Source of the DNA: an uncultured delta proteobacterium
GTDB lineage: Bacteria; Desulfobacterota; Syntrophobacteria; BM002
DNA: 64,000 nucleotides
Reading direction: 5' to 3'
Assembly (NCBI GenBank): GCA_963712115.1
Contig: CAVQGX010000030.1
Span: forward strand, 160,001 to 224,000
Position numbers and translations under genes: made by a program. Within the stretch, counting starts at the first letter, position 1. Each line of letters starts with the position of its first letter. Below, piece after piece: positions 28,045-38,013 of this stretch. A model generated the notes under the pieces. The model ran no database searches, had not been told where the DNA came from, and saw nothing but the letters and a program-made list of their open reading frames with translations.

Positions 28045-28434
28045 ATGACACTTCACTCCTATGTGGGCAGCAACACGATTATAAAGGGCAATCTTGAGTG
28101 CAGTGAAGATTTTCTCGTGGAGGGCGCCGTTGAAGGCAACCTGAGTTCCGAGGGCCTAATAGTCTTGGGGAAGGACGCGGTGGTTAAAGGTGAGGTATCG
28201 GCAAAGGAAGTTGCCATTTCAGGAATTGTCGCGGGTACAGTAAGATGCTCGGAAAGACTTGAAATCTACGAGTCTGCCAAAATCATAGGCACAATTCAGG
28301 CGCCTGTCCTCAAGATGGCCGCAGGCGCACAGATTGACGCCAGAATAATAATGTCTCGGAAAGTTGACGACGTTGAGCTTATTTCTCAATCCCCCGAAGA
28401 TTCATATCCCTCACTGGTCAAGTCCGGCAACTAG
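28045..28434 (+). CDS. bactofilin (polymer-forming cytoskeletal protein)
   Basis: Beta-helix pattern IKGNL...VEGAVEGNL...VKGEV...ISGIVAGTV...IIGTI. Confidence 0.88.
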   Translation: MTLHSYVGSNTIIKGNLECSEDFLVEGAVEGNLSSEGLIVLGKDAVVKGEVSAKEVAISGIVAGTVRCSERLEIYESAKIIGTIQAPVLKMAAGAQIDARIIMSRKVDDVELISQSPEDSYPSLVKSGN

Positions 28435-28552: not shown

Positions 28553-29023
28553 TCATTCCGGCATTGGTTCCAAAGTCAATTCGTGACTGATATCGATACA
28601 GCCAATCACGCTCTGTGCCCCAGGACACAGGGGCAGGTAAGTATTCAGGGCTTCCCTGGCATCTTCCCATTTTTCCTCTGGGGCTTTGAGCGTATAGTGG
28701 ACTTTGATCCGTGTAATTTTCAGAACTTTGTCAACCTCTTCAATATCACCTGTTACCTCAGCCTCATATAGATGTTCGAAGGTTCGAATTTTTTTGCCGG
28801 CCAGTACCACGGCCAGTGTGCCCATCATTCAGCCGCCCACCGCGCCGACGATGTGATCCAAAGTGGCGGCGTGCTCTTGTTCAGGTTCTACCTTGTAAAA
28901 ATCCTTTATTCCACCGTGGATGCCATAATAAACCGGTTCACCAAAGCCTTTGATGAGGGCCTTCCTGGTTGGTCCCTTCTCTCTCGTAATGGTGATCTGT
29001 GAACTGTGCACAACCTTACCCAT
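28553..29023 (-). CDS. OsmC-like protein, probable selenoprotein (in-frame TGA at 28831-28829)
   Basis: The 64-aa and 91-aa ORFs are contiguous and in frame across one TGA (AVGG-U-MMGTL), at the position of the first OsmC catalytic Cys. The second Cys lies in LCPG, and a SECIS-like hairpin follows the TGA. Confidence 0.82.
28797..28816 (-). promoter_or_regulatory. candidate bacterial SECIS hairpin
   Basis: Minus strand CTGGCC-GTGGTACT-GGCCGG starts 12 nt after the UGA; the apical loop begins with G about 18-20 nt from the UGA. Confidence 0.6.
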
Positions 29024-29043
29024 GATTTCCTCCTAATTTAATC

Positions 29044-29475
29044 CTAGCTTCGCAGCAGGTCATCAACTGGCGTAGCTTTTTCGAGTATATCTCCAAGGCT
29101 CAGGGAGAAAAGCTGTTGCTTGAGCATATCCGTCATTCCGACCCAGATCTCCCTCGTTGGACACTCGGTAGCACGATAACAGAGCTCGGGTTCCAAGACA
29201 CAATCTACGACCGATAGTTTTCCTTCGAGTGTCTCAACTATCTCGCCCACACTTATCGCTTCAGGCTTTCTCGCCAGCATGTAGCCACCGCGTCTCCCCC
29301 TAACACTTCGAATAAGACCGGCCCCTCTTAGCAAGATGATTAGCTGCTCAAGATACTTGGCGGAAAGATCCTGTCGCTTGGCGATCTCAGCAAGTGGTAC
29401 AGGCCCATCAGCATAGTGCTGAGCCAGATCAACCATCAGTCGAGTACCGTATCTACCGCGCGTCGAGAGTCTCAT
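29044..29475 (-). CDS. Rrf2-family transcriptional regulator with three Cys (Fe-S ligand pattern)
   Basis: MRLSTRGRYG, YLEQL, SVRGRRGGYML and CVLEPELCYRATEC; RBS GGGGAGG. Confidence 0.93.
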   Translation of the reverse strand: MRLSTRGRYGTRLMVDLAQHYADGPVPLAEIAKRQDLSAKYLEQLIILLRGAGLIRSVRGRRGGYMLARKPEAISVGEIVETLEGKLSVVDCVLEPELCYRATECPTREIWVGMTDMLKQQLFSLSLGDILEKATPVDDLLRS

Positions 29476-29650
29476 AAAGCCTCCCCAATACATACAATAT
29501 ATATAGATTAGCTAGAGATTAACAGGCTACACACCGACTGTCAAAACAAATCTTTGAAAATGCTACAGCGAGCGCATTCCCCGTCTCGCCCGGGCGGGAC
29601 TGCGGGGGTAGCAGGCGAACTACAATAAAATGGAATCTCTTCTTTACATT

Positions 29651-29846
29651 TAGCCCGGATAATTTCATGAATCACCTGCTGCGACCACAGATATGGCCGT
29701 CCTTCCTGGCGTCCTCGGGTGTCGATCCCTGCGACGGACCCTTCAGGTACGCCTCGGATCCAATCCCGCGGTACCGCGGGACGGTTGCCAGCTGGCACGC
29801 CCATCTTCGCGGTCTCGCAACAGTAATTCATGAAATATCAGGGCTA
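29651..29846 (+). mobile_element. MITE family A, copy 3 (196 bp)
   Basis: Same termini and internal palindrome as the other copies; the right end CTA is the TAG stop codon of the diadenylate cyclase gene. Confidence 0.88.
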
Positions 29847-31313
29847 GGGAAAGAGTTGTTCTGGAGAATCTTCGGAGTTGGGTTTGGACTTAAGTTGAAT
29901 AGTGACCAGGACCTTTTTGTTCTGTCCGGGAAGCAGTCTAAGAGAAGCCGGAGAGAGTACCACTGGAACTTCCACGATTTTCTCTCCACTTTGAGGTTCT
30001 ATGTCGCCTACACTGATAGGCTCGGTTTTTAGGCTAAGCATATTGTTGAGCGTTGATAATGGGCCGGTTACCCTTACAGAACCCGGTCTGACCCTTATTC
30101 TGTCAATCAGATATCCGGGGGGGGGAGATCCAACTATATTTGGCTCTACCGCTATTTCTCTCTCTACTCGAGTTTCCATTTCTAATCTTATTGCCGCTGG
30201 GGTTATACGTACCACCTCCAGACCTAGTGGTAGTTCGATATTGTCTCCGTTCAACACAATTCGGTGAAATCCCGCTTCAATCGCACTGAGATCCAAGAAA
30301 GCACCCACCTGTTCTGGTTTGAGAGCGCTAACAAGCCTGCGTTTACCAGTAATTTGTACTTCTACTCTCTCGGCAGATGATCTCCTGAGTTCTAGGCTCT
30401 CCGGTATGTTACGAAAATCCACCGCAGTGGTAACATTAATCAGAGATAATTGCTTGCCCGAGTAGATTCCCCAGGAGGCCGAAACCAGCAGGAAGGTTAG
30501 TAGAAGGCCACCAGCTTGAATAAGCAACTCCCTCACCCTGGTTCTTGGTTTTACGGCTGTGTAAGTCCCCAGGAGCAATCTACCTAGCACCATCTGGAGT
30601 TGAGGCGGTTTAGGGACCAATTCCACTTCACCCCGATGTACCACCGAGACCTCGCCACGCTCTTCGGATACTACTACTATGACCACATCAGTCATCTCAC
30701 TCAGACCAATGGCGGCTCTGTGTCTGGTCCCGTATTGTCGGGGTAAACCCTCTTTTTTAGTTAAGGGCAAGTATGCCCCAACTAACTTGATCCGGTCTCC
30801 CTGTATTATTGCCGCGCCGTCATGCAGAGGACTTTCTTTGGCGAAGATGCTGGCCATAATTTCAGGGCTCCACTTGCCTTGGAGAGTAATTCCTTCACTC
30901 AAGTGTTCGGCCAACCTGTCTCGCTGTTGGAAAACAAGCATAGCACCTATTCTGTTCTTGGCCATCTTGAAGGCCGTCCTCTCTACCTCAGGCAGGTCAA
31001 TTGTCCCAGGTTGGTAAGGTCGACCTAGGAAAAGACGAGCGGGGCTGGTCTGAATTACAACGTCGCGGATTTCATTTCTGAAAACCACCACGATGACAAG
31101 CACAGCAATAGCACCTAAACCCTGGAAAAACCAGCTGGTGAGTATAAGGCCGCTTGCCTGGGCAAGGGTGTGACACACCCAAAGGAATAGAAGGCCTAAG
31201 AGTATTTGTAAGGCCGTAGTTCCACGGAAGAGGAGAAACAGCCTGTGGATAAGAAAGCTGATTACCAAGATGTCTACAACATCTTGCCATTTGAAAGAGA
31301 AAAGGAAATCCAT
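29844..31313 (-). CDS. diadenylate cyclase (CdaA/DacA-type) fused to YbbR (CdaR-like) domains
   Basis: Three N-terminal TM segments, a DAC domain with LHDGA and GTRHRAA, a further TM, then YbbR-like repeats (VQITG, P..VRVTGP). Confidence 0.9.
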   Translation of the reverse strand: MDFLFSFKWQDVVDILVISFLIHRLFLLFRGTTALQILLGLLFLWVCHTLAQASGLILTSWFFQGLGAIAVLVIVVVFRNEIRDVVIQTSPARLFLGRPYQPGTIDLPEVERTAFKMAKNRIGAMLVFQQRDRLAEHLSEGITLQGKWSPEIMASIFAKESPLHDGAAIIQGDRIKLVGAYLPLTKKEGLPRQYGTRHRAAIGLSEMTDVVIVVVSEERGEVSVVHRGEVELVPKPPQLQMVLGRLLLGTYTAVKPRTRVRELLIQAGGLLLTFLLVSASWGIYSGKQLSLINVTTAVDFRNIPESLELRRSSAERVEVQITGKRRLVSALKPEQVGAFLDLSAIEAGFHRIVLNGDNIELPLGLEVVRITPAAIRLEMETRVEREIAVEPNIVGSPPPGYLIDRIRVRPGSVRVTGPLSTLNNMLSLKTEPISVGDIEPQSGEKIVEVPVVLSPASLRLLPGQNKKVLVTIQLKSKPNSEDSPEQLFP

Positions 31314-37624: not shown

Positions 37625-37751
37625 TAAATGGCGCGAATATGATCGTTGTGGAGTAGCCTTCCCGTGGCCTATGTCACAAAAATATTTTTGGGAAACTCCT
37701 GGTCAGTTTACCATTGACAGAGGAGCAAATCGAGACTAAGCTCAGCCGACC

Positions 37752-37946
37752 TAGCCCGGATACTTGATGAATCGCTTGCTGCGACCACGGATATGGACGT
37801 CCTTCCGGGTGTCCTCGGCTGTTGGCTCCTGCGACGTACCATTCAGGTACGCCTCGGATCCAATCCCGCGGTACCGCGGGACGGTTACCCGGTGGCACGC
37901 CCATCTTCAAGGTCTCGCGACAGCAATTCATGAAACATCCGGGCTA
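37752..37946 (+). mobile_element. MITE family A, copy 4 (195 bp)
   Basis: TAGCCCGGATACTTGATGAAT...ATTCATGAAACATCCGGGCTA with the same internal palindrome. Confidence 0.88.
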
Positions 37947-38013
37947 AGAGCGGGAAAGCCGAAATCGGTTATTCGCCCTTGAGCAATTGAACTTCATATT
38001 CAGTTAAGGAAGT

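Follow-up and report, generated by a model that had tools for sequence, protein, structure and literature searches.

The rrf2–osmC-like gene pair

On the minus strand of the window, i.e., the whole 64,000-nucleotide stretch of DNA that was analyzed, a gene for an Rrf2-family regulator is followed by a gene for a small OsmC-like protein. The reading frame of the latter (29023-28553) consists of 156 codons plus a stop and is interrupted by a single internal TGA at 28831-28829, which corresponds to codon 65; TGA also serves as the gene's own stop. The features of the locus are the following:

28553-29023, minus strand: OsmC/Ohr-fold gene, 156 aa when read through the TGA at codon 65, with Cys133 at 28627-28625 and Cys142 at 28600-28598
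28829-28831, minus strand: in-frame TGA at the position of the peroxidatic Cys, very likely selenocysteine (Sec), based on TGA and Cys counts in homologues
28797-28816, minus strand: predicted bacterial SECIS, 7-bp stem and 6-nt loop UGGUAC with G24 at 28808, based on homologue comparison and published criteria
29029-29034, minus strand: ribosome-binding site AGGAGG, with 5 nt between it and the start codon of the OsmC-like gene; relatives are purine-rich here
29044-29475, minus strand: Rrf2-family regulator, 143 aa, with Cys92, Cys99 and Cys105, scoring below the IscR, CymR, NsrR and RirA cut-offs
29516-29544, minus strand: promoter-like site upstream of rrf2, made up of TTGACA, 17 nt and TAATCT preceded by TG-n, conserved in 15 of the 16 regions aligned

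The residues around codon 65 read HIVGAVGG-U-MMGTL, and an LCPG motif further on contains Cys133. The original prediction, made from the sequence alone, had described one 156-aa frame with a single TGA; its coordinates and both motifs were correct, and the 20-nt gap between the Rrf2 stop codon (29046-29044) and the ATG of the OsmC-like gene, as well as the AGGAGG, were confirmed on the sequence. A third cysteine, Cys142, had been overlooked; it is present in 41 of 44 close homologues. The expectation that annotation pipelines would split the gene was also borne out, the two halves existing as separate public proteins in clusters of 228 and 79.

The pair is flanked by genes encoding a CdaA-YbbR diadenylate cyclase fusion (29844-31313, minus strand) and a bactofilin (28045-28434, plus strand), an order preserved at most loci of the genus. 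A MITE-like repeat of ~195 bp (29654-29847), with imperfect terminal inverted repeats of ~21 bp, lies 180 nt upstream of rrf2 and has 93 genome matches of at least 150 nt. Its summed depth in RNA-library contigs is very high, probably reflecting copy number across organisms, and spurious open reading frames at 37674-37982 look like the same repeat.

Probable selenocysteine at codon 65

A search of 61 genomes (the genome of origin and 60 relatives) gave a match in 29, including 17 of 17 in the genus, and all 28 matches covering codon 65 carried TGA. When a 49-row profile was run against 301 genomes of the phylum, 39 genomes matched; of the 43 match rows, 39 had one TGA and one full-length row had none, the other three being weak, partial and free of stops. 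Over 91 full-length loci (of 97, a redundant set), codon 65 was TGA in 90 and TGC in one, and thinning to 80% nucleotide identity left TGA in 43 of 44 homologues and TGC in one. A sister branch with the motif U-L-T-G-T, collected in a search seeded from a Nitrospinota record (74 metagenome loci, L167-L240), had TGA in 67 of the 69 loci covered at this codon and TGY in 2, with 5 uncovered. Among the best 150 library proteins, 44 stop at the break, 18 start after it, 48 span it and 40 are partial otherwise; the spanning proteins have Cys at position 65 in 35 cases and another residue in 13 (one of them Trp). The original prediction had proposed homologues with Cys or TGA at this codon as a check, and these counts bear it out.

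If the TGA were a real stop, the locus would contain a pseudogene or a pair of small genes, of 64 and 91 aa, unless the codon were a sequencing error or read as Trp. Such readings, which we consider very improbable, draw on the ATG ATG that directly follows the TGA in 42 of 43 close homologues, where a 91-aa half would start, and on the fact that each half is called as a protein in public sets. A genuine stop would, however, be expected to drift to TAA or TAG, neither of which occurs in the 91 full-length or the 69 covered sister-branch loci; the sister branch has Leu-Thr and no ATG after the TGA, and a break at this point would remove a catalytic residue and split one fold. The use of TGA as the gene's own stop and the Cys found in homologues also speak against these readings. 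As for a base-call error, which the original prediction had named as refuting, contigs near-identical to the locus extend across codon 65 in two DNA runs and two RNA-library runs, with no variant among the matches listed. The genome of the TGC orthologue at L154:3564-4025 (G223, 98% complete) yielded neither selA nor selB, both of which are found in two congeners, and in this orthologue the hairpin stem described below is disrupted by a GCC to TCC change; the match between a Cys codon and missing Sec machinery thus comes from a single case.

The hairpin begins 12 nt past the UGA (28816-28797), as originally predicted; in place of an 8-nt loop led by G, folding and the homologues favor a 6-nt loop with G24 as its second base. 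Numbered from the U of the UGA, positions 16-22 pair with 29-35 to form a 7-bp stem closed by G22-U29, with an energy of -10.9 kcal/mol. These values fall within all four bSECIS criteria as given in PMC13188914, i.e., a loop of 3-9 nt with a G in the first two loop positions, a stem of 4-16 bp, a distance of 16-37 nt from the UGA (19 nt here) and an energy of ≤ -7.5 kcal/mol. Compared with shuffled sequence the hairpin had no extra stability (z -0.45; 55 of 200 shuffles equally good), and its support is evolutionary: conservation, not energy, exceeds chance. Across the 43 thinned homologues, codons L70, A71, L74 and A75 of the stem had a top-codon share of 0.79-0.93 and thus varied less than any other synonymous site of the gene, the other 52 conserved Ala, Leu, Gly, Thr, Val, Arg, Ser and Pro positions listed ranging from 0.26 to 0.68. 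Stem pairing held in 96% of 301 cells from the 43 homologues, a score reached by none of 500 shuffles in a control that is inflated by kinship among homologues; slid-register controls gave 4-52%. Paired changes were present as well, with C16-G35 replaced by U16-A35 in 7 of 43, while the closing 22-29 pair, with G or A at position 22, is G-U or A-U in all (A-U in 19 of 43). Loop base G24 is nearly invariant (41 of 43). Of the 8 other TGA sites examined in the same genome, 3 likewise have G24-G25 in their predicted loop, namely those of selD and two mvhD genes. The sister branch has a different SECIS-like hairpin a few bases further on (stem ~23-28/34-39, loop UGGAN), with paired changes of its own as judged by eye.

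The original prediction had also called for a check of the Sec machinery. The genome carries selA, selB and a selD with an in-frame TGA of its own, and five of 8 matches to mvhD-type genes bear TGA. In this assembly selC was not found, a result that would also fit a genuine stop at codon 65: among the 150 of 464 candidates that were scored with Rfam, the best reached 45.8 bits, under the threshold of 47, and the top two read as Ser tRNAs; neither ARAGORN (default or relaxed), a pattern scan nor, among the matches listed, blastn with the relatives' loci gave a selC gene. It is present in 23 of 28 relatives, where the gene that precedes it maps, in at least seven loci compared, to the end of contig C31 of our assembly (357391-358437); in two of those loci the match reaches the last base of the contig, ~250-320 nt short of the tRNA position. 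Since the upstream gene runs out at the contig end, the absence of selC is probably an assembly gap. The genes for tRNA-Asp and tRNA-Phe are likewise unlisted by ARAGORN for this assembly. A selB match was found in 32 of 34 TGA carriers, and both carriers without one have selA; because almost every genome of the phylum has selB (282 of 301, 94%), this co-occurrence is uninformative.

Based on these observations, the two annotated halves are very likely one gene, in which the downstream hairpin helps the ribosome to decode the UGA as selenocysteine. That the internal TGA at codon 65 specifies Sec is the claim in which we place the greatest confidence, and Sec insertion would follow from the codon counts and the conserved hairpin.

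Fold, active site and relation to the published OsmC-like selenoprotein

The read-through protein matched the Pfam OsmC family (PF02566) with 40.2 bits against a cut-off of 27.5 over residues 56-147, spanning the break, and its predicted structure had a pLDDT of 96.5 and a pTM of 0.89. In a structural search of 48,161 chains, ranks 1-11 were all OsmC/Ohr proteins (Z 15.2 to 9.8; first unrelated chain 7.2), headed by 2onf (Z 15.2, rmsd 2.0 Å, 139 aligned), and Foldseek agreed with an OsmC fold (E 2.7e-9). A single-sequence search of the PDB gave 0 matches, none of the NCBIfam OsmC-family models matched the protein, and the ESM Atlas, queried with a Cys orthologue, returned generic OsmC clusters only.

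The best structural matches (Z 15.2-13.0) are members of the Ohr-like/YhfA group, namely Ta0195 (2onf), 1ml8, which we take to be E. coli YhfA, Psyc_0566 (2pn2) and Aq_1549 (2e8c); this is a loose group, not a clade, and its identity to our protein is 10-16%. Like the protein described here, these have two Cys without the canonical Glu (PMC5384416, PMC8945050). The function of the YhfA type is described as uncharacterised (PMC8945050), and an Ohr-like protein without the Arg and Glu was inactive in the peroxidase assay of one laboratory and active in that of another (PMC5384416). XfOhr (1zb9), E. coli OsmC (1qwi/1nye) and Thermus thermophilus OsmC (1ukk, Z 12.6) have the fold in common with the protein encoded here (Foldseek TM 0.67-0.71). 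Positions 65 and 133, 68 residues apart where the superfamily has a spacing of about 60, align with the two catalytic cysteines of the Ohr/OsmC thiol peroxidases and are kept in 49 of 49 rows when TGA is read as Cys. In contrast to those enzymes (identity 10-18%), the protein has Sec for the peroxidatic Cys, Leu for the catalytic Glu with an Asp one residue later, an extra helix at 37-43 and the third cysteine, Cys142. Ohr and OsmC require an Arg and, ten positions ahead of the first Cys, a Glu (PMC5962072, PMC5384416), the reference spacing in XfOhr being Glu51/Cys61. The catalytic Arg is in the beta1-beta2 loop in Ohr and in the beta3-alpha1 loop in OsmC. Here Leu55 occupies the Glu position and Asp56 stands beside it, each in 44 of 44 homologues, and HMMER aligns Asp56 to E. 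coli Glu49 solely via a one-residue gap. Arg20 (at the start of beta2), His36, Tyr43, Asp56 and His57 are invariant in close homologues; in the model, the extra helix, with His36 and Tyr43, precedes the active-site helix.

Judged by sequence profile and predicted fold, the protein is a member of the OsmC/Ohr superfamily and, by the Glu criterion, not of the Ohr or OsmC subfamily proper. We place it in the Ohr-like/YhfA group, a loose assemblage of unsettled activity. By analogy, it probably acts as a two-cysteine redox enzyme of the Ohr/OsmC kind, and peroxide reduction is the activity that we favor with moderate confidence. Following the Ohr/OsmC scheme, the protein would form a homodimer in which Sec65 attacks the peroxide, Cys133 resolves the oxidised Sec65 to a selenenylsulfide and a dithiol such as that of a lipoyl protein restores the reduced form; Cys142 may pass electrons on, and the invariant Arg20, His36 and Asp56 are candidate catalytic helpers. 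Thiolates depend more strongly on activation than selenolates do, a difference that may explain how the protein manages without the canonical Glu. The genome has four matches to GcvH-family lipoyl carriers; no GcvH or lipoyl-protein gene lies beside the locus in three locus sets (flanks of 1.5-5 kb), and no gcv genes occur among 73 neighbours.

A different function, which we regard as possible and clearly less probable than peroxide reduction, would leave the Sec recoding intact and make the protein a thiol/selenol oxidoreductase or carrier that handles persulfide, polysulfide, nitrosothiol or protein disulfide via Sec65, Cys133 and Cys142. The missing canonical Glu, the extra helix with its invariant His36 and Tyr43, and the conservation of the third Cys would all fit such a role, as would the titles of the five best structural matches (putative, hypothetical or OsmC-like), the deltaproteobacterial or Syntrophobacterales genomes of the close hosts, and a divergent TusA gene at one locus. 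The two-Cys geometry is, however, that of the peroxidases, and no recurring sulfur-transfer, Fe-S or selenium genes were seen among the 88 and 73 neighbour proteins scanned, a result that also speaks against the sulfur- or selenium-handling module originally proposed. At three sister-branch loci (L184, L198, L203), the same strand carries an upstream gene with a below-cut-off match to NF008299 ('oxidative stress defense protein').

Zhang, Fomenko and Gladyshev predicted a selenoprotein family named 'OsmC-like protein' in 2005, describing three Sargasso Sea sequences with the motif UxxT, absent from the genomes sequenced by then (PMC1088965). Published representatives read GF-U-LLT (PMC12013277, PMC1088965, PMC2398784), a 2026 list of 119 selenoprotein families has one OsmC-like entry (PF02566, UxxT; PMC13188914), and the accessible text on the Olavius deltaproteobacteria gives no OsmC-like selenoprotein (PMC1976440). 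The family catalogued as NF041052 (OsmC_like_Se) has in common with ours the OsmC fold, a UGA codon in place of the first catalytic Cys and a hairpin behind it, and both are known from computational prediction only. Three NF041052 members read AF-U-LLT (twice) and GF-U-MFS, whereas the motif here is ATLDH...G-U-MMGT (GG-U-MMGT). The OsmC-like protein did not match the NF041052 model (95-bit cut-off) at E 0.01, nor at E 10 in the genome search; weak matches were obtained for 23 of 49 family rows (best E 9.8e-7), and alignment to the three members extended over at best 18 residues (E 0.006). A 42-row tree set the family apart by a 100/100 branch (midpoint root, long branches), and members above the cut-off were found in 2 of 301 phylum genomes, versus 39 of 301 for the clade found here. 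Identity with the published NF041052 selenoprotein was thus rejected, since there is no profile match, the motif differs and the clades are separate, and we are confident that the clade is distinct from the catalogued family; the sequences printed in the published papers themselves were compared with it by eye only. Judging from these sequence comparisons, Sec was likely gained independently in the two. The original statement that such proteins had been reported in anaerobes did not hold, as the published OsmC-like selenoproteins were found, in the accessible text of those reports, in metagenomes of the marine surface and fall into a different clade. In an incomplete survey of literature on OsmC with selenocysteine or selenoprotein, and on Rrf2 with selenoprotein, no paper on this clade or on the pairing was found; 'OsmC' was also not found in the text of the BSepDB supplement, which is possibly partial, and the clade may be listed in BSepDB. 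The genome contains a second OsmC-family gene (contig C30, L053:1300-1880), with Cys at the first site and seemingly Ser at the second; it is the genome's best NF041052 match, sub-threshold at 54 bits.

The Rrf2 regulator and the proposed function of the pair

The regulator scored 126 bits against the Rrf2 superfamily cut-off of 73 and missed all named equivalog cut-offs (IscR 119/208, CymR 128/195, RirA 50/193, NsrR 49/182). The three cysteines that had been noted in the original prediction are the linker residues Cys92, Cys99 and Cys105, found in 6 of 6 aligned rows; superfamily and linker cysteines are common to this protein and to IscR, NsrR and RirA. In contrast to IscR, it lacks a His three residues past the third Cys, presumably the IscR His site, and has Arg108 there. 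Three-Cys Rrf2 proteins bind Fe-S clusters and derepress upon cluster damage (PMC11672702), and the three linker cysteines make a cluster plausible, as a prediction, for this regulator. No isc or suf genes lie beside rrf2. A paralogue on contig C42 (L151:5525-5947; 65% identical) is followed by a small ABM-domain gene and is divergent from a methyltransferase gene.

In 18 of 19 family genomes rrf2 is located upstream of the OsmC-like gene on the same strand, whereas just 2 of the 35 genomes outside the family have an adjacent Rrf2 gene (within 1.5 kb), which is divergent, head to head, in these two members of a single genus; the originally proposed pairing is therefore almost wholly a feature of the family. 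In that genus (g10; L152, L153) the Rrf2 is 43% identical, with a MOSC-domain gene next in one genome and an ATP sulfurylase nearby in the other. The promoter-like TTGACA-17-TAATCT occurs in 15 of the 16 upstream regions aligned, the 16th being masked by N. A scan for consensus promoters and terminators was at chance level and did not list this site because its -10 box (3/6) misses the threshold. No palindromic operator was seen by eye upstream of rrf2, nor one common to rrf2, the C42 paralogue and the divergent loci. Two RNA-library runs of one study gave contigs that span rrf2 and the OsmC-like gene; strand, level and a single transcript are not deducible from them, and they give a weak hint of co-transcription.

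It is tentative, and in our view doubtful, that the Rrf2 gene is a mere neighbour inherited in one family, without control of a selenoprotein gene that has its own signals. This would account for the 33 of 35 genomes outside the family without an adjacent Rrf2 within 1.5 kb, for the gap of ~700 nt between the two genes in one family member, and for miscellaneous, unrelated neighbours elsewhere, including MarR, MerR and IclR regulators. The 20-nt gap on the same strand, the conserved promoter-like site ahead of rrf2 and the head-to-head arrangement in a second lineage argue against it. We consider an rrf2-osmC-like operon in the family quite probable, and direct repression of the OsmC-like gene by Rrf2 a guess with even chances. 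One promoter would then transcribe rrf2 followed by the OsmC-like gene, and damage by oxidant or NO to a cluster on the three Rrf2 cysteines would release repression.

Our preferred reading of the locus, held with reasonable but limited confidence, is an OsmC-fold selenol hydroperoxide reductase of the Ohr-like/YhfA type with UGA read as Sec, likely co-transcribed with Rrf2 and possibly repressed by it. A bolder version, which we put forward only speculatively and think rather unlikely in full, is a second independent invention of Sec in the OsmC fold. The clade would then be a selenoenzyme family of anaerobes, widespread and as yet uncatalogued, with a distinct active site (Sec65, Cys133, Cys142 and Arg20/His36/Asp56) and a different SECIS hairpin in each of its two branches, and in this lineage an Fe-S-sensing Rrf2 repressor would control it directly.

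A Sec-OsmC is not a new kind of system, as such selenoproteins are known, and the link to Rrf2 is a lineage feature. The split gene represents a common annotation error, since 62 of the best 150 library proteins stop before or start after the Sec codon. Retention of the costly Sec at codon 65 argues that Ohr-like/YhfA proteins are real redox catalysts, and the natural Cys orthologue gives a ready Sec/Cys pair for comparison. If the regulator is indeed an Fe-S-sensing repressor, cluster damage would be tied to a selenium-dependent detoxifier in this lineage, and if Sec was invented a second time in this fold, the Ohr-like/YhfA group would gain a testable member.
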